Source: a virus
Taxonomy: Duplodnaviria > Caudoviricetes
Strand: one strand, 5' to 3'
IMG/VR virus record: IMGVR_UViG_3300035492_000236
Length of the DNA: 64,000 nt
Shown here one piece after another: positions 1,988-29,292 of the stretch. Position 1 is the first letter of the stretch, and each line of letters opens with the position of its first letter. Position numbers and translations under genes: made by a program. The notes beneath the pieces are model-generated. The model was given only the letters and a program-made list of their open reading frames with translations. It was not told where the DNA came from and did not search any database.

Positions 1988-3304
1988 ATGTCGGTGCAAT
2001 TGAACAAAGACGACATCCTTGCAACGTTCCAGAGTATTCCTAACACCACAGGAATAGCCTTGGAGGCGAGGGCTGACCCGACGTGGGGCGAGATCAGTTC
2101 GTTAAAGGATGCCTTCGTGGCTGGGGCGGATAACACCACCGCCACTATAGCAATGTGCAAGAGAGTGATTAATTACAGCAAGTCTATCGCCAACCGGACA
2201 GAGAACATTACCTACTTCGGCGGGAACTTGTTGGGGACGGACCGTATCCGCTTTTACTCAACAGATCGCGATCGGTGGTTCGATGAGGTCCTACAAATCG
2301 ACGAAGCTTACCTGCAAGAGTGTATTCATGCAGTCCCTGCAGTGGATAAAGACTGGAAGGTGGCAGGCGATGCATTCAACCTGAGCGTGATTTGGTTCGT
2401 ACATCGGGCCATCAACGACATCGGCCTCCGGGATAAAACCGCATATGAAGCGATGGTGGAGGCGTTGATCATGCTGCAGTTCCGGCTGATCACATCTGCT
2501 TATACCAACTTCTTCGCCCAACCTGTGGATGAGGCGGCGGCAGAAGCCACGTATGCCGCCTCCAGCATGAAGTTCCGTATTCGTCAGTTAGGTTCCTGGG
2601 GGGCGGTGTTACGGTGGCGTGCTGAATCGTATCTGTCGAAGGACAGTACCCACGCTCGCACACTGCAGAAGTTTGAAGATGACGCTGCCGTAATGTACGT
2701 GGTGACAGACATTTCCACTCGAATCCGTAAGATGATCAAAGACCAGTATGCAATCCTCGATCGGATCCGTTCTGGTAACCTACGCATTCAGACCACCTCG
2801 AACAGTATCGAGATTGACGGTGAGAAGATCATCCGTGATACCGTGAACGCGTACAGCACTGCAAAGTACTACCTGCTGGACGTGGCGGGGAACGAATCGA
2901 GCTTCATTAAGCTGGAATTGGTCGATGTGGTACTCGACGTGATGTCCACAGCCTCTAAACAAGCCCTGCTGGACGTTTTGGTATCGGTGGCAAGGACACC
3001 TACCGGTAAGAAGCGGGATGTCGTAGAATCGATCCTAGACGATACCTTGCTGTATTGTTTCGAGTACATTGCCAAGCACCGTATTCGATTCACAGACGTG
3101 GGGTACATCCTCAGTAAAATGCGAGCGATGATCACTTCATCCAAGTCGGATGACCCGCGTTTGCACAGCCTTCGTGAACGCTTAGAGAAGTACGCTAGAC
3201 AACACACCCATCTGCGAGCATCAAGCGCGTTAGCATCGGTGCGCACCGCAGTGATGTTATATGTCCTACTGAGAGCTTTGTCAGCCAACGTATACAGCAA
3301 ATAG
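1988..3304 (+). CDS. Conserved phiKZ-like protein, probably virion-associated
   Basis: 438-aa ORF with GGAG RBS and a terminator; lies next to the terminase block as in phiKZ-like genomes. Confidence 0.7.
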   Translation: MSVQLNKDDILATFQSIPNTTGIALEARADPTWGEISSLKDAFVAGADNTTATIAMCKRVINYSKSIANRTENITYFGGNLLGTDRIRFYSTDRDRWFDEVLQIDEAYLQECIHAVPAVDKDWKVAGDAFNLSVIWFVHRAINDIGLRDKTAYEAMVEALIMLQFRLITSAYTNFFAQPVDEAAAEATYAASSMKFRIRQLGSWGAVLRWRAESYLSKDSTHARTLQKFEDDAAVMYVVTDISTRIRKMIKDQYAILDRIRSGNLRIQTTSNSIEIDGEKIIRDTVNAYSTAKYYLLDVAGNESSFIKLELVDVVLDVMSTASKQALLDVLVSVARTPTGKKRDVVESILDDTLLYCFEYIAKHRIRFTDVGYILSKMRAMITSSKSDDPRLHSLRERLEKYARQHTHLRASSALASVRTAVMLYVLLRALSANVYSK

Positions 3305-3306
3305 TC

Positions 3307-3332
3307 GAGGAGGGCGCTCGCCCTCCTCTTTT
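3307..3332 (+). terminator. Intrinsic terminator
   Basis: GAGGAGGGCG...CGCCCTCCTC hairpin followed by TTTT. Confidence 0.75.
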
Positions 3333-4383
3333 ATGCGTTATTTTTTAGTAGGGTAACCTCGTCCGCCGTTAATTCGACGTTGTAACGTCGGATGCCTGCA
3401 ATGTAACCCTCAGCGTGTTCATCCTTGTAACCTTGCCCCACTCGATAAATGCTGCCTGCGGTGGAGAAAGCAGTACCGTTTAACTCATGCGCTAGCGTGC
3501 CATTAATGTAAACTCGCAACCGGCCATTGCCGTCGTAGGTAAATACAAGATGGTGCCAGGCGTTGGTGTTGATGGTGCTACTTCCATATTGACTACCAGT
3601 GGAGGAGCTGTGGAAATATGGCCTCGCTTCACTGACTCCCGTGCTGGTGATTTTAAGAGCAAAGACTGCTTGCGTTGGGTAGGCTGAGAACAGGTGCGTA
3701 TACCCTATGAAATTAATGGGGTAATAATGCATGCTATAAGACCACGCACCACTGTGTTCCAACCACGGGCTTTCAAGGTACTTTGAGCCACCAACACGAA
3801 AACAAGACCGTCCATCAATAACCGCAGGTACTGCACCCGACACGATGAAATCGGCAGTATCAATCGAGTCGATCGCATCAGTTTCCAATTGCCACAAATT
3901 CGACATGCGTCGCGCATTCGTAAAGGGAATGCCGCCCACCATCGCTGGATGACCGCTTTCCGCAACCACGTGCCAATCGTTGGCTATCTTGGTAATAAGC
4001 AAGTTATGATCTTCAGCAACAGCATACCGCCGCGCAAGCTCTGCACGCACCCTTCCCAGATCGGGATCTCCAGTCACCACATCATCAGTATGGTTAAGAT
4101 GGCACCCCACTTCACTGAATAGCGTTGATAAATCAATACGGTTGTAGTAAACTGTCGCGGTGGGAACATCGACCTGTGGTCCTGGCTCATCCACCGCCAA
4201 AGTAATGCGGCTATTGTAATTACCATACGTGCCAGACACTGGACCGTCTGAAATGTGCAACTCACCTTCGGTGTACGTGGTGTTGTTTGCGTAATTGAAC
4301 AGCTCTCGCAATAACGTTATTGGTGGTTTTAGGGTATCGACAATATAAGACATGTAGTTCTCCGAGATGTATCTAGGGCCCAC
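3331..4383 (-). CDS. Putative tail fibre/receptor-binding protein with C-terminal LamG (concanavalin A-like) domain
   Basis: N-terminal VYYNRIDL motif typical of jumbo-phage virion fibre proteins; C-terminal WHHLVFTYDG...YING...IRRYNVELTADEV LamG signature. Confidence 0.65.
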   Translation of the reverse strand: MGPRYISENYMSYIVDTLKPPITLLRELFNYANNTTYTEGELHISDGPVSGTYGNYNSRITLAVDEPGPQVDVPTATVYYNRIDLSTLFSEVGCHLNHTDDVVTGDPDLGRVRAELARRYAVAEDHNLLITKIANDWHVVAESGHPAMVGGIPFTNARRMSNLWQLETDAIDSIDTADFIVSGAVPAVIDGRSCFRVGGSKYLESPWLEHSGAWSYSMHYYPINFIGYTHLFSAYPTQAVFALKITSTGVSEARPYFHSSSTGSQYGSSTINTNAWHHLVFTYDGNGRLRVYINGTLAHELNGTAFSTAGSIYRVGQGYKDEHAEGYIAGIRRYNVELTADEVTLLKNNA

Positions 4384-4443
4384 AATATCCCGCTTAAGCT
4401 AGGTCTGGGTAAATTTATTTTATAGCTTTAATTGAATTATCGC

Positions 4444-4475
4444 AAAAAAAAAGAGGACCGAGGCCCTCTTTTTTT
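4444..4475. terminator. Bidirectional intrinsic terminator
   Basis: A9-GAGG...CCTC-T7. Confidence 0.65.
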
Positions 4476-4479
4476 GTCT

Positions 4480-5754
4480 TTAAAAGTCGAGCTCTGTCAG
4501 CTCGACCTCACCACGTATATTGTAAGCCGCGATGTAGTATTTGTAGTGGTTCCCACTTCTCCGTCTGCGTGCTGCTCGCTGCCAGCGATCGTACCTGTCG
4601 TCGTGGCCATCGTCGTCCCGGTCGCTTCCATGCGTACGATTAATGAGATTACCGATACCACCAACACCTACCGCAACCGCATACGGGTCGCCGTCGAGAT
4701 GCCCTTCTGAGACGATGAACCCTTCAACCTGGAACTCAATACCAGACTGATTATGGATCCATGGTAACGTTGGCAATGCAACCACTGGACCTTGGTCACC
4801 GACATGATCTTCCTCAAGATCGCAGAAGAGCGCCAGCCGTACCACTGCTGCAGGTACGAGTTCCGCATCGAAAACTTTCATAAACACGTCTTTGATTTTC
4901 TCCAGCACGGTTGCACCAGCCACAATATCCGGCGTAAAGGTTCCTGAAATCCAAACGCTGTCGTTGTTATCATACTCCCATGACATGTCAAATGAGAGAT
5001 GTCCGCGTGTTGCATTAATCGACAACAGGCCGTGATTAGCATAGCAGTGAATTACAACATCCCCGCTCATGATAACACGATCTAACTGACCGTGTCTGAT
5101 CGGGAATGTGCCGTACTGCTCGAGTTCCTGATTAACAATAGCCACCGCTTCACCAATTACGAGTTGCCCCAGCCCGGCATACGAAAATACCGAGGCTATG
5201 TCGTTGGGATGCGTAGGGCCTTCCATGTAAGACTTTCCTGTATTCAGCACGTCGCCCGATAGGCAATGTTGGTTGTTTTTCTCATGGTAACGTTCCATGC
5301 CCGACCGCGTGTCGTGGCGCAAGCCCCATTGCGATGCAACATCTTCACTCGATACCATATAGCCACTCACAGTAACCGAACGTAGGCCCCCGTTAACAAC
5401 CTCCAGGTCGAGCCTAACAGTAATTAACAGCTGCTGGTATTGATAGACGACATCGGCACTGTTTCTGTTTCTACTAACAAGTAGATTACTGCGTGTTAAC
5501 TGTTTGCCGCATTCAATGAGCGATTTGAGTTCATCGAATTCGACCACGGTTAAGCTCATGCGGCTTTTGAATTCGCCCAAATCTGACTCGTCATTGAAGT
5601 ATGCAGTTCTGGTACCGTCGCCCCAAGGCCGCGTATACCACCCTTTCAGTACGTGTTTTGTAATGGTGACTTTGGCTTTTTCCAAACTCCCTTCAGTCAC
5701 CACTATGTTGAAGGCTTGTTGGTCGTCGTTGGTGTAATTAAAGGTGTAAGGCAT
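4480..5754 (-). CDS. Hypothetical protein
   Basis: 424-aa ORF with GGAG RBS, ending at a terminator. Confidence 0.75.
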   Translation of the reverse strand: MPYTFNYTNDDQQAFNIVVTEGSLEKAKVTITKHVLKGWYTRPWGDGTRTAYFNDESDLGEFKSRMSLTVVEFDELKSLIECGKQLTRSNLLVSRNRNSADVVYQYQQLLITVRLDLEVVNGGLRSVTVSGYMVSSEDVASQWGLRHDTRSGMERYHEKNNQHCLSGDVLNTGKSYMEGPTHPNDIASVFSYAGLGQLVIGEAVAIVNQELEQYGTFPIRHGQLDRVIMSGDVVIHCYANHGLLSINATRGHLSFDMSWEYDNNDSVWISGTFTPDIVAGATVLEKIKDVFMKVFDAELVPAAVVRLALFCDLEEDHVGDQGPVVALPTLPWIHNQSGIEFQVEGFIVSEGHLDGDPYAVAVGVGGIGNLINRTHGSDRDDDGHDDRYDRWQRAARRRRSGNHYKYYIAAYNIRGEVELTELDF

Positions 5755-24456: not shown

Positions 24457-25590
24457 TCAACCGCCCTCTTTCAGAATCGCTTGTGCGCCCTCAGAGATCA
24501 GTTGACAAACCTTGTTCGTGGTGCCGATCTGGTACACTGACAACACGATCCGCGCATCGACCGATTTGCGTCCAAAGATGGCGTCAATAGGTAGACCCGT
24601 TTCGGTTTCATTAACGCCAACCATGACGCGTCGAAAGGTTGATTTCAACTGGTTGGCAAACACGGCCTTGTCGCCACCAATGGCCGGCACTTCCTGCGTC
24701 ATATACAGACGGATGACCATAGTCTCCAGCTCTACAGGATTACCTTCAATCCGCAGAGAGCTGTCAACCCGACCATGCTCCGCCAGCCGTTTGGGACTGC
24801 GTTTGGCTTCCCGCCTACGCTTACGATCGCCCCACTCTGCTAGTGCCCGAACGGATTCCGACATGTCTTCATAATCGCCGTGGTAGAAGATCTCGATACG
24901 ATCCACCACCCCGTTGAGCTTGGCGCGAGGTGCCTTAGCTGCCAACTTACGTAGCGTTTCAATGGATTTATCGCTGAAGCCTTGCATACCAGCAGAGACC
25001 GCATCTTCGATCACGCAGAGTACAGTGTCGGGGGTCAGCTTCTTACCTTCCTTCACCATGTCATGTATGGCTTGATCGAAACGCACCGTGATATGTTTCA
25101 CCTTGGAGATCTGTGTGGTTAGCTTCTCCGACAAAGCTGGCGAGATCGCGCTGGAGTCTTCAAGGGTGTCGGTGCCTTCCAGTAGGACAACGTTAGCCAT
25201 CACTCCCGCTTTCCAGTTGACCTGGTTAGGCGTAACAGGATCGACCTCGAAGAACTTCTCGTTGTAGGTCAGTACATCACCCTTGGCGAACTTCTGACCA
25301 ACCTTAACATTAGGAACCAACACATGCGGGAAGACCCCGCCCTCATGTCGACCGAAGGTTTTTCCGACAGGGTATGACTTAGTGGTCTTGGGCTTGGTGT
25401 CGTATTCCACGGTAATACCATACTCATCCATCTCGACGACTTTACCGGACTCTGCAGCCACTACTGCCTGACTGCTCCCCGTACGGTGGGCCACTAACTT
25501 CTCCGCCCCAGTACGGAATGCGGTGACTTCATATCCGTTGGCAGACATGCCTGAGCCATGCTGAATTCCAACAAAGCTTGCTCGTTTTCC
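24457..25590 (-). CDS. rpoB: Virion RNA polymerase beta subunit (gp178-like), exon 2
   Basis: Open frame from GGA at 25590 (GKRASFVGIQHG...) continues into ORF 24457..25548; beta motifs EDSSAIS and GDKAVFANQLK. Confidence 0.9.
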   Translation of the reverse strand, partial: GKRASFVGIQHGSGMSANGYEVTAFRTGAEKLVAHRTGSSQAVVAAESGKVVEMDEYGITVEYDTKPKTTKSYPVGKTFGRHEGGVFPHVLVPNVKVGQKFAKGDVLTYNEKFFEVDPVTPNQVNWKAGVMANVVLLEGTDTLEDSSAISPALSEKLTTQISKVKHITVRFDQAIHDMVKEGKKLTPDTVLCVIEDAVSAGMQGFSDKSIETLRKLAAKAPRAKLNGVVDRIEIFYHGDYEDMSESVRALAEWGDRKRRREAKRSPKRLAEHGRVDSSLRIEGNPVELETMVIRLYMTQEVPAIGGDKAVFANQLKSTFRRVMVGVNETETGLPIDAIFGRKSVDARIVLSVYQIGTTNKVCQLISEGAQAILKEGG

Positions 25591-26060
25591 CGAAATGTTC
25601 AGAGTGGTCGTTAATCACTCCCGCTATCACGGACCTCCCGGTCGGCGACGCTGCTCTGGGGTTTCCCCAGATGTCCAGACTATATTATCATCTCACCTTA
25701 ACAAGCGCACCTAATGCGCTACGATGAGAGCTTTCTCTTTCCTAGCCACTTGGCCAGTACGAGGGCGACCCCTCTAGTCGTTGAACGTTCTCCTTGGTGC
25801 GTCTCCCGACGCCGGTAGGAGCTTCGCTGCTCGATTGTCCATTGCATAACCCCTTAGCGGCGCGTCTCCCGACAGGCACTCCTTTAAGCGTAGGGCATCT
25901 CAACTGGCCTCCTCAGGAAGCCTTTGACTTTTTTCTGTCTTTCGACCGCGTATCGCACTCGTCCTTTCGGACCATGCTGTAGCGAGTTGAGCTTTAGGGT
26001 GTTCCAGCAATTAAGAAAGTTATCACTCCACAATCACTCGTAGAGGCGACGTTTATGTCC
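25591..26060 (-). mobile_element. Group I intron (470 nt, no ORF) in vRNAP beta
   Basis: 5' exon ends in U and intron ends in G; P element AATTGCTGGAA (26002-26012), R GTTCAACGACTA (25775-25786), S ATATAGTCT (25677-25685); P7 GACTA/TAGTC, P3 CTTTCT/AGAAAG, P9 CTGGG-GAAA-CCCAG. Removal restores HDD|GKR in frame. Confidence 0.92.
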
Positions 26061-29000
26061 ATCGTCGTGCATAATGCCCGGTGCTAACTGGTTAGAAAAT
26101 GACAGGTATTGGTTCACCTCCAAGTTGTCACGGTCCAGCGGTTTAATCAACCCATCAACATCATCAAAGATGGGGTTGTTAGTCAGGTACTCGGTAATGC
26201 CAACGTCACCACTGTCAACGTTGTCGCCGGAGATCACTCCCAGGTTGTTCTTACCGAACACCCGCGTCCTCTTCACCATCGATCTGCGAGAGCGTCCGCC
26301 GGTCCCGCCGAAAGTCACGACATCAGCTTCTTTGATAGACTGAATTGGGTTGGAGTCGGATGCCGGCATTACCGACGGGTCTTGTGCAATCGCGCTCCAG
26401 ATTTGGTTGGGCGGTAAGATGATCTTCTTCCGACTACCTGGTTTATTGCGGGAGTCTCGAATTGCTTTAACCAACTGCCCATACACTGCCCCAGCAATGC
26501 GCTGATGTCCGTAGATATGCATGCTGTCCATATCGGTCTCGTGCGGATGTTGGTCATAGGTCAACATTTCGTTCGCACGTCGGATAAGTCCCCTAAACGT
26601 GGTCGGTTCGCCCATCTTTTTCAAGATGCGTTCACTGATTGGATCCACGTACATGGCGTCCATCTGATCCAGCTCCAGCAGATACCTAACCGTCAACCCG
26701 TCTTTCTGAATCAGGTTCAGATACACGTCTTGACGGTTCAGGTCTTCCATGGAGAAGTCGCGCGTGATCTTGACGTAATGACGCAGACCATTGAAGATCA
26801 GTGCTTGCTCCTGGTTTGCGTAGGTGATAACGTATTTACCGTCTCTGCAGGGAATTATCAGATCGCCTTCATCGGCCTTGACACGCTCACCTGCTTCCGC
26901 CAGACGATAGTCGACGCCGAACTCCTTCAGCGCACTCTCCAGCCCGTAGTAGTACGCAATCACGAGCCCGGTTGGAATTGCCTTCCCCATCATCGACAGT
27001 TCACTGTGTTCTTTCGGCGCCTTGCTGATATCGAAGCCAAGCACTTCTGCGAGAGTCCCCACTTCGGTCAGGCCTTTGCCGTCTTCCTTGTACATCATGT
27101 TAAACGGATCCATGACGTAAGTGGCGCCACGTGATTTACCGACAGGTACCAGCTTCTGCTCTTTCAGTTCGGCCACCTTCTCCACACCGAAGGTTTTATC
27201 CACCGTGCTGTAATCGAAGTTAAACACGATGCCTTGTGAGGTGAAACCGGAGAGTCGCTGCGATACGGAAGTGTAGTCGCGTGGTAACTCCACAGTAGGG
27301 TCGAAAACATTAGCAAACCGCAAATCGCTCACGCTCAGGTTACTGGCATCAATGCCTGCAGTGATGATGTTGTTGGTCAGCCACTTGGGCCAATCATTCA
27401 CCACCTTGTCACTACGCCGAATGAAGTTCTTATTGTAGAATGTAGTGAGTGCGACGGTGTCTGGCGCAGTCTTTCGAATAGGGAGGTCGACCCGCTGCCT
27501 CCTCATGGTGTAGCGCACGTCGTTCGCTGTCCAATACCCTTCATCATCAAATAGTGGTGTGGGGAAATGGATCGTGGACGACTCACCCTTCACCGGAGTG
27601 ATTTTGAGGGTGTGGTATACCAGACCGTTGGCAGCGTCCACTACTTCCTCGGCTTTGTAGTCATTGACAACTATGCCCATTTTCTGCACAGCCATGATTG
27701 AACTACAAATGTCTTTCGGCAGCACTTTCTGTATGTATTTGCGGTTGAGGTTCGTGACTGTACTCTTCGCTAGACCAGGATCCAACAATACCGGATCCTC
27801 GAGCAACAACTCTTCCTCCAACGCCACTTCCTCGGACGTGACCTCCAGCATATCAGCCAGCGTCCCCTCGCCAAACGGGTTAGGGATGGCCTTGTAGCTT
27901 TCTGACTGATCCAGCATCCGCTGGTATTCCTTGGTGGTCAGTTGGCCGGCCTCGATATAACGCAGGCTTTCTCGCTTGATGCCGTTGTCAATAGTGATAG
28001 TGGTGTGTTTGACATCCTCCACCTCGACCTCATCGGTAGTCTGGACTATCTCAAAATCTTCCTCTTCGTCAAGGTCAACCTGCTCATCAAACGCTTCAAT
28101 CTCCTCTTCAACCGAGCGATCGTCACCATCAGTAAGTTCAGGCGGATCGAATTCACCACTGTCTTCCAGCAGCTCGGTCTCGACGATCTCGCCATCAGCA
28201 TCCTCACGTACAGACACCGGTTGGGTGGACTTCACCTCTTCCGGTAATTGCTCCGTTGCTAGTTGGATGATGGACTTGTACAGACGCCGCTGCATTTGGA
28301 TAGGATCAATGCGTCCACCGGTGTCGCCTTTACGCCAGAAATCCAACTCACCCAAGTTCATGTTGATGAATCGATCATTGAACGACACGATCACGTTGAT
28401 CCGCTTGAGTTGCTCTGCCGTGAGTTTACCCAACATGCCGCGGTCACGGTTAGGACCAAACCAAGTCCATAGTTCCAGGAAGAACAGTACGTTATCGTCA
28501 CGCATACTGTCGAGGGTGTTGAGGTCGCGTCGCTTCTCCGCCTTACGCAACTTAGCAATGGACGGCAACTTGGTCGGAATGGTCAACAGTAGGTAGTTCT
28601 GTCGTTGGAAAGTAGAGCTGTCGTGGCCCAGCTGGGTAACCACAGTTAGGAACAAGTTGTACCAGCGCTCATACCACGACATCAACGTTTCGGGGTAACG
28701 ATAAACCCGACGCAACGGAGCATAGTTCTCCACCATCATGACCCGATCGTCACGCTCCACCAATTTGGTATTGTGCATCATCCGCAGACGTTTGTTGATC
28801 CGATGATATTGAATCACGTCGCGAGCAATGGCGGTCTCCACACGACGGGGTCGGCCGACAGTGCCATGTTCGGCCAGGTGCAGTACGTGGTTAACCTGAA
28901 TCAGTTTTTCCGCCTTCTCCAAAATCGGGTGATTCTGCGGCGGGCCAATTTCAGACACCCCATCGGTCGGGATGTAGTGCAGAATACTACCCCTGGGTAG

Positions 29001-29090
29001 TTCGAGCTTCGACAGTGATGCGATACGTGGATTGCCGAACTGTTCGACCCGAATCACTGAAAACTGTCGGTTAAAGTTGCGAAGTAACAT
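26061..29090 (-). CDS. rpoB: Virion RNA polymerase beta subunit (gp178-like), exon 1
   Basis: 1010 codons ending ...LAPGIMHDD, equivalent to bacterial beta PFLEHDD; spliced product about 1387 aa. Confidence 0.9.
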
Positions 29091-29118: not shown

Positions 29119-29292
29119 TTATTCAGGGTCAGCCAACAGGTTAAACATGGTACGTTCAATCAAGTCGGTGTTGACATCAATCTTTAGACGGTCACCATTC
29201 ACCCAGAACGATGCCTTTTGCATTTGTTTGCGGTTTTCTTCCAGTGCTTCGTCGGTGTAGACGGAATCACCAGATCCAGTGTCACCATCGAA
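29119..29292 (-). CDS. rpoC: Virion RNA polymerase beta' subunit (gp180-like), exon 2
   Basis: Begins FDGDT, completing the catalytic DFDGD motif; 57 aa plus stop. Confidence 0.9.
   Translation of the reverse strand, partial: FDGDTGSGDSVYTDEALEENRKQMQKASFWVNGDRLKIDVNTDLIERTMFNLLADPE

Follow-up and report, generated by a model that had tools for sequence, protein, structure and literature searches.

Group I introns of phage subgroup IA2, which include those of T4 td, nrdB and sunY and that of Twort, sit next to catalytic residues of nucleic-acid enzyme genes. In the T4 introns, it is P6 or P9 that houses an ORF or a short loop, and P5 lacks a large extension. Introns of the phiKZ gp55/gp56 type, which interrupt the NADFDGD motif of the non-virion RNA polymerase (nvRNAP) beta' gene, form part of a broad family in the polymerase genes of chimalliviruses. 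In the virion RNA polymerase (vRNAP) beta gene, one of the closest described systems is that of phage PhiPA3, in which an intron with the HNH endonuclease gene gp210 separates gp211 from gp209 at a site directly after two conserved Asp residues (Birkholz et al., Science 2024, PMC11620839). A same-site intron in phage 201phi2-1, between gp273 and gp274, is backed by proteomics and by two spliced ONT long reads (PMC11512511).

We analysed a 64,000-nt stretch of DNA (hereafter the window) from a viral record of the Duplodnaviria; Caudoviricetes (IMGVR_UViG_3300035492_000236) and found that the same gene is interrupted at the same codon. The segment at 25591..26060 on the minus strand is, judged by its sequence, a group I intron; it is 470 nt long, has no ORF, starts with GGACAU and ends with ..UUUCG. 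It is very probable that this element is an ORF-less ribozyme of subgroup IA type in the vRNAP beta gene of a pVa-21-like chimallivirus, and that it would splice itself out of the transcript to yield one subunit of 1387 aa.

The ORF list gives two minus-strand calls at this locus, 26034..29090 (1018 aa) and 24457..25548 (363 aa), with 485 nt between them that hold no long ORF. In PHROG 3148 ('RNA polymerase beta subunit', 1424 positions), exon 1 matched positions 2-1051 (E=0) and exon 2, read from GKR, matched positions 1052-1422 (6e-153), so that the two pieces abut in the profile. Among isolated phages, the nearest relative is Vibrio phage pVa-21, whose beta gene pVa21_167 (gp167) is uninterrupted and encodes 1384 aa. 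Aligned end to end with pVa21_167, the 1387-aa joined product showed 62% identity and no gap at the junction (..LAPGIMHDDGKRASFVGIQHGSGM.. in the joined product vs ..LAPGTLYDDDKRANFIGIQHGSGM.. in pVa-21 gp167). Exon 2 was 70% identical to the C-terminal part of the pVa-21 protein and 46-47% identical to the phiKZ-like sequences and PhiPA3 gp209. Furthermore, a beta'-like gene (phrog_2986) lies upstream of the beta gene, the same as in pVa-21 and PhiPA3. Both homology and gene neighbourhood thus point to a vRNAP beta gene orthologous to phiKZ gp178, and packaging of its product in the virion would be expected from orthology only. The HDD motif before the junction would correspond to the bacterial beta motif HDD(ANRALM), in agreement with Birkholz et al. 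(2024, PMC11620839), who equated the second Asp of the pair with E. coli RpoB D675. Pfam gave no match for either ORF or for the intact pVa-21 gp167, even at E<=10, and neither phmmer of the junction region against the PDB nor a megablast search of GenBank phages with the whole gene returned a match; a search for related loci with exon 2 returned only three distant loci, at 41% identity.

On the minus strand, the 5' boundary at 26061/26060 reads ...ATG CAC GAC GAT before the cut and GGACAUAAACGUCG... after it (as RNA, ..GGC AUU AUG CAC GAC GAU followed by GGACAUAAACGUCGCC..), and the 3' boundary at 25591/25590 reads ...AACAUUUCG before the cut and GGA AAA CGA... after it (as RNA, ..CUGAACAUUUCG followed by GGA AAA CGA GCA..). 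Exon 1 (26061..29090, minus strand) thereby comprises 1010 codons, ends with ..GIMHDD and has U as its last base, and exon 2 (24457..25590, minus strand) comprises 377 codons plus the stop and starts with GKRASFVGIQ. Excision of the 470 nt at 25591-26060 left a 4164-nt CDS of 1387 aa with one terminal stop, which reads ..LAPGIMHDD-GKRASFVGIQ.. across the junction. The predicted nucleotide junction of the spliced exons is ..CACGACGAU-GGAAAACGA.., the predicted site without the intron is ..ATGCACGACGAT-GGAAAACGAGCA.., and the predicted tryptic peptide spanning the HDD-GKR junction is DNLEVNQYLSFSNQLAPGIMHDDGK. GGA opens both the intron and exon 2, and the splice pair can slide by 0-3 nt with the mRNA unchanged; a U before the 5' site together with a G as the final intron base is found only when 26061/26060 is combined with 25591/25590. 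We also considered 25654, where the Rfam match stops, as the intron end and rejected it: only 8 codons would then be read before a stop, and the frame of exon 2 opens only at 25614.

The first 14 codons of exon 2, (25590-25548)/3, precede the ATG of the downstream ORF call and are hence missing from that call. They are conserved with pVa-21 and, having no start codon of their own, would be translatable only after splicing. The upstream call errs in the other direction and includes 8 extra read-through codons (GHKRRLYE) from the intron. Taken together, these data support the reading of 24457..29090 minus the intron as a single vRNAP beta gene that is split after HDD.

The sole Rfam family matched in the 64-kb window at gathering thresholds was RF00028 (group I catalytic intron), at 25654-26074 on the minus strand, and the full model (1-253) was covered. 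The score of 50.5 bits lies barely above the gathering cut-off of 50 bits (E 7.3e-10 for the whole 64-kb window), which we attribute to large insertions in P5 and P7.1/7.2. The alignment to the model includes the elements P (AAUUGCUGGAA), Q (AAUCGAGCAGC), R (GUUCAACGACUA) and S (AAUAUAGUCU) as well as P3, P6, P8 and P9. The catalytic core of P3-P8, P4-P6 and P7 is present, and GACUA/UAGUC is able to form P7, the guanosine-binding site.

From its 5' end, the RNA begins with P1 (26047..26064, minus strand, as are all elements below), in which the exon CGAU and the intron base G1 (26064-26060) would pair with the guide CGUCG (26051-26047). The CGAU/GUCG helix, extended by G1-C10, places the wobble pair U26061.G26050 at the splice site, and it also formed when the intron and 6 exon bases were folded without constraints to the minimum free energy (MFE). 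This fold has an MFE of -170.5 kcal/mol (z = -2.57), a value matched by 1 of 100 shuffles. The P1 of the Rfam register (CGACG/CGUCG, five Watson-Crick pairs) was discarded, as only CGAU/GUCG puts a U.G at the splice site and the MFE fold concurs. P2 (26026..26045) is an 8-bp hairpin with a GUGA tetraloop (GNRA); when the three paralogous introns of this phage, described below, were folded together with RNAalifold, 6 of its 8 pairs were changed on both sides with pairing kept. The 5' strand of P3 (CUUUCUU) and the P element, or P4 5' strand, lie at 26002..26019 in the Rfam alignment. Next to them, a peripheral extension of ~150 nt in the P5 loop (25844..25991) stands out as an insertion relative to the Rfam model. 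It holds several helices, GAAA tetraloops and the A-rich stretch GAAAAAAG, and its helices show compensatory changes among the paralogues and relatives.

The Q element, or P4 3' strand, is followed by P6-P6a in the Rfam alignment (25787..25836), and P6 also appears in the RNAalifold consensus. The R element (J6/7 plus the P7 5' strand, 25775..25786) corresponds to the Rfam consensus GUUCAaAGACUA and is invariant in the three paralogues. Between P7 and the 3' strand of P3, the Rfam alignment shows an insertion of 34 nt with two hairpins, GAGGG/CCCUC and CUGGCC/GGCUAG, which are P7.1 and P7.2 (25742..25774) and which recur in the MFE and consensus folds. The 3' strand of P3 (AGAGAAAG) and P8 with its extension occupy 25691..25738 in the Rfam alignment, P3 being also in the RNAalifold consensus, and the S element, the 3' strand of P7 that provides UAGUC for pairing with GACUA, occupies 25677..25686 and is conserved in all same-site introns. 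P9 (GAAA loop), P9.1 (GGGA loop) and P9.2 (UAACGA-type loop) follow at 25602..25670. The RNA ends in an 11-nt tail, UGAACAUUUCG (25591..25601), which carries the terminal omega G at 25591 and aligns with the tails of same-site introns.

RNAalifold of the three paralogues gave 107 consensus pairs, 44 of which are still paired after changes on both sides; the covariation overall comes from a small sample, these three paralogues and a few distant relatives, and consensus folding misses the long-range pairs of P4 and P7 and prefers local alternatives. The compensatory changes among the paralogues suggest that these RNAs are under selection for structure. The same P/Q/R/S core, with P7.1 and P7.2 between P7 and the P3 3' strand, is seen in IA2 introns, and the presence of P7.1 and P7.2 would place the intron in subgroup IA (IA2-like), as assigned from the helix inventory only. 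As with the IA2 introns, catalytic residues of a nucleic-acid enzyme adjoin the insertion point, which lies beside a conserved Asp pair near the active site.

In the splicing pathway that we propose, the pre-mRNA would fold and bring the guide GUCG onto the exon end CGAU, forming P1 with its U.G wobble. An exogenous guanosine in P7 would then attack after U26061, and the freed exon 1 would attack after the terminal G25591, ligating ..HDD to GKR... A variant of this pathway, in which the intron is spliced in vivo and is not autocatalytic alone, would call for a phage or host cofactor (a maturase or chaperone), possibly tied to the P5 extension. Some group I introns do require protein cofactors, and here the proximal P5 stem is weak and ill-defined and P10 is minimal, with one G-C pair, both of which would fit such a need. 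However, P5abc-like extensions usually stabilise the core and so lower the dependence on protein, related phage introns generally self-splice in vitro, and no maturase-like ORF was found in or beside the intron. We therefore regard a cofactor requirement as unlikely and favour autonomous self-splicing.

Less likely still, and in our view quite improbable, is that the segment is a decayed remnant that no longer splices and that beta is made as two polypeptides (1018 + 363 aa) which come together as a split subunit. Natural splits are common among the RNAP subunits of jumbo phages (PMC7598289), an in-frame ATG is available at 25548, and the Rfam score is only just over the threshold. Yet every core element and both boundary nucleotides are intact, the helices covary with those of the paralogues in a way that implies selection on structure, and translation from that ATG would lose the 14 conserved codons before it. 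In addition, the break falls right after the conserved Asp pair, where the uninterrupted homologues are continuous. These features favour a functional, self-splicing intron in one beta gene over a split subunit.

No endonuclease is encoded in the intron. The longest stop-free frame inside 25591-26060 is 65 aa; tblastn of PhiPA3 gp210 and of the HNH protein of phage Totoro against the intron gave no match at E<=10, and Pfam gave no match, HNH included, on the five small ORFs within it. Nor was a gp210-like or HNH_3 gene found in the 174-kb viral record, which is ~75% complete. The homing endonuclease that characterises a mobile group I intron is thus lacking in the beta-gene intron. Far from the beta-gene intron, at the contig end, is a free-standing ORF of 313 aa with a GIY-YIG domain (33 bits; G000:C1:173374-173604, minus strand, L033). 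No other gene resembling a homing endonuclease was found in the record, and this one adjoins none of the three introns.

Most of this had been anticipated by the original prediction, made from the sequence and an ORF list. It had merged the two ORFs into one gene by in-frame removal of 25591-26060, named the exon-final U and the CGAU/GUCG P1 with its U.G wobble, recognised P3, P4, P7, P9 and the intron-final G, and stated that an endonuclease ORF is absent and that the ORF track calls two genes and omits 14 codons; all of these points stand, and the upstream call is now seen to carry intron codons as well. The two comparisons it had proposed, with group I models and with an intron-less gp178 homologue, came out in its favour in the RF00028 match and the pVa-21 gp167 alignment. 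What did not survive is its claim of novelty, which it had placed in the insertion site and in the compact ORF-less form: the site is published for PhiPA3, annotated for 201phi2-1 and also occupied in phages HPP-Temi, HHBS8_1 and Totoro, and compact introns occur there in 201phi2-1 (~336 nt, without an ORF) and HPP-Temi (~348 nt). Both the site and the ORF-less form are therefore already known, from PhiPA3 and 201phi2-1.

We inspected the PhiPA3 DNA and found that exon 1 ends with ..SMNDD and exon 2 starts with M-KRVGFISIQ; the phiKZ gp178 orthologue is interrupted at the same codon as here, after the Asp pair and before x-KR. An interruption between DD and x-KR is also present in 201phi2-1, HPP-Temi, HHBS8_1 and Serratia phage Totoro, the last with an intron of ~1.7 kb that contains an HNH gene. 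The introns of 201phi2-1 and HPP-Temi scored 87 and 70 bits with Rfam. The 3' domains of these introns are homologous to that of the beta-gene intron, with AUAUAGUCU, the P9 hairpin, a UAACGA-loop hairpin and a UGAA..CG tail in common. The UAACGA-loop hairpin, P9.2, is common to the PhiPA3, 201phi2-1, Temi and Totoro introns, with compensatory changes in 6 of its 7 pairs. In five same-site introns, the last base before the x-KR codons is a G that aligned with the terminal G25591. Blastn matches between the same-site introns and the beta-gene intron span only 35-85 nt.

The PhiPA3 intron, homologous to the beta-gene intron in the S element, in P9, in P9.2 with its UAACGA loop and in the G-terminated tail, is 1352 nt long, contains the gene for the HNH/NUMOD endonuclease gp210 close to its 5' end and has a ribozyme core of ~290 nt without a large P5 extension, whereas the beta-gene intron has neither an ORF nor a remnant of one. 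The intron of 201phi2-1 resembles ours in its site (..AHDD before M-KR..), in the absence of an ORF and in the joined CDS annotation of gp273/274; it differs in coming from a Pseudomonas phage, in being shorter and in having no P5 extension, and only its 3' domain aligns readily. The phiKZ gp55/gp56-type introns, in contrast, occupy another subunit gene and another site. The intron described here is thus real, correctly delimited and of an ordinary kind, and its evolutionary interest is modest. Particular to this phage are the ~150-nt P5 extension, a nearest relative in its own DNA polymerase gene and a third paralogue in beta'.

The annotation of several relatives is affected in the same way as that of the window. 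In the GenBank records of HPP-Temi (L019), HHBS8_1 (L020) and Totoro (L021), the halves of vRNAP beta are given as separate CDSs, with small spurious 'hypothetical proteins' in the intron. The main value of our analysis lies in annotation, namely that the two ORF calls of the window should be joined as one vRNAP beta gene of 1387 aa, and the same joining applies to these three records. Three distant, chimallivirus-like IMG/VR contigs (L015 at 3134-3501, L016 and L017) have a group I intron 4-5 codons downstream, between DDPKRVN and NFISIQ (57 bits). With the DD/x-KR insertions also counted, at least two sites near the Asp pair are used, which makes this region a hot spot for insertion.

This phage carries three related ORF-less introns, whereas pVa-21 has no group I match at all. 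The second intron (29293-29761, minus strand, 469 nt, no ORF) splits the adjacent vRNAP beta'-like gene (phrog_2986) between ..ELGAD and FDGDT.., inside the catalytic Asp motif. Its Rfam score of 32.2 bits is below the cut-off; it has the P5 extension in common with the beta-gene intron, to which it is 74% identical over 140 nt, and the exon 2 that it precedes (29122-29292) matches the pVa21_166 C-terminus at 67% identity. The third intron lies outside the window, in the DNA polymerase gene (L006 ~1381-1867, which is G000:C1 ~28196-28682, plus strand), and scored 51.4 bits. It splits a match to phrog_3011 at profile positions 468/469; its 3' end reads ..AACAUUUCG, and its 5' end is approximate. 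This DNA polymerase intron is the nearest relative of the beta-gene intron; over 426 nt, a span that takes in the P5 extension, the two are 72% identical. Both are ORF-less and have the P5 extension, P7.1/7.2, P9-P9.2 and a 63-nt identical run; the DNA polymerase intron differs in its host gene (phrog_3011), exon context and guide, and is without one 23-nt hairpin of the P5 extension.

The run that is 100% identical in the pairwise alignment of these two introns occupies 25630..25692 (minus strand). At the observed identity, 63 nt of identity would arise by chance with a probability of ~2e-7, and the same 63-mer forms a separate unitig of ~2.3x depth in four DNA runs; both findings suggest recent ectopic gene conversion between the paralogues. 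The interval 25630-25692 is also a spot where assemblies can break. That the locus is merely a chimeric join made through this exact repeat, which does break unitigs there, is next to impossible, as both flanks of the repeat are intron-specific and run continuously into the correct exons in contigs of 19.5 kb and 62 kb from several runs, and as the frame is restored exactly at a known homing site. Contigs with the intron-bearing DNA were found in four runs, all of DNA, from a tar pit metagenome that may be its source; no RNA run was found to contain the stretch. In those contigs no intron-less joint was seen, the sole joint there being a cross-mapping of the paralogous intron at ~29643-29707, and a degenerate IMG/VR search for an intron-less allele (G-I-M-H-D-D-G-K-R-A) gave 0 matches.

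With respect to the evolutionary route of the beta-gene intron, we infer that the intron most likely homed into the site and then lost its endonuclease ORF, or else was mobilised in trans, because the site is an established homing site of the PhiPA3 gp210-type HNH intron. Later, the intron may have exchanged sequence with the paralogous DNA polymerase intron of the same phage. In a bolder reading, a single lineage of ORF-less ribozymes would have colonised three polymerase genes at their catalytic motifs (DNA polymerase, vRNAP beta' inside DFDGD and vRNAP beta after HDD), with copies that still exchange sequence. The copy in beta resembles that in the DNA polymerase gene far more than it does any same-site intron of another phage, and so may have come in with no nuclease of its own, whether by reverse splicing or through a nuclease acting in trans or supplied from a co-infecting phage. 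The 63-nt identical run suggests continued exchange by ectopic gene conversion, and we hold the scenario as a whole to be tentative and rather doubtful.

With our results, the chimalliviruses that have an intron at the homing site of PhiPA3 gp210 come to include a Vibrio-phage-like lineage found in an environmental metagenome. This site matters for interference competition between phages. Cleavage by gp210 targets the intron-less site (PMC11620839), and the occupied site should hence be immune to a gp210-type nuclease. In addition, three ORF-less paralogues with a recent identical tract in one genome provide a small natural case for the spread and homogenisation of group I introns that lack their own endonuclease.

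The P5 extension is not confined to this phage. The nvRNAP beta' introns of FishSpeaker, Miami, ACP1 and pAEv1810 have it too, with 74-81% identity to the beta-gene intron over the P3-P5a region. The pattern TGCTGG..CGAAAGRCRGAAARAA, which covers the region from P4 to the P5 extension, was found in at least 80 IMG/VR stretches (L035-L114), many of them on viral contigs of 100-280 kb. None of the 80 pattern matches listed has a vRNAP beta junction, and 10 of the 80 could be assigned to the three other polymerase host genes tested; with only these 10 in homologues of the tested polymerase genes, the P5-extended subfamily would seem to be widespread in other genes. Unannotated P5-extended introns were observed after ..(N)ADFDG exons, the catalytic motif of RNAP beta', in FishSpeaker (L002 ~5000-5360), in Miami (L003 ~4000-5400) and in L030, L031 and L032. 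The genes that flank these beta' introns are annotated as hypothetical or as truncated RNAP, and in Miami the intron falls in a 1.4-kb unannotated gap.
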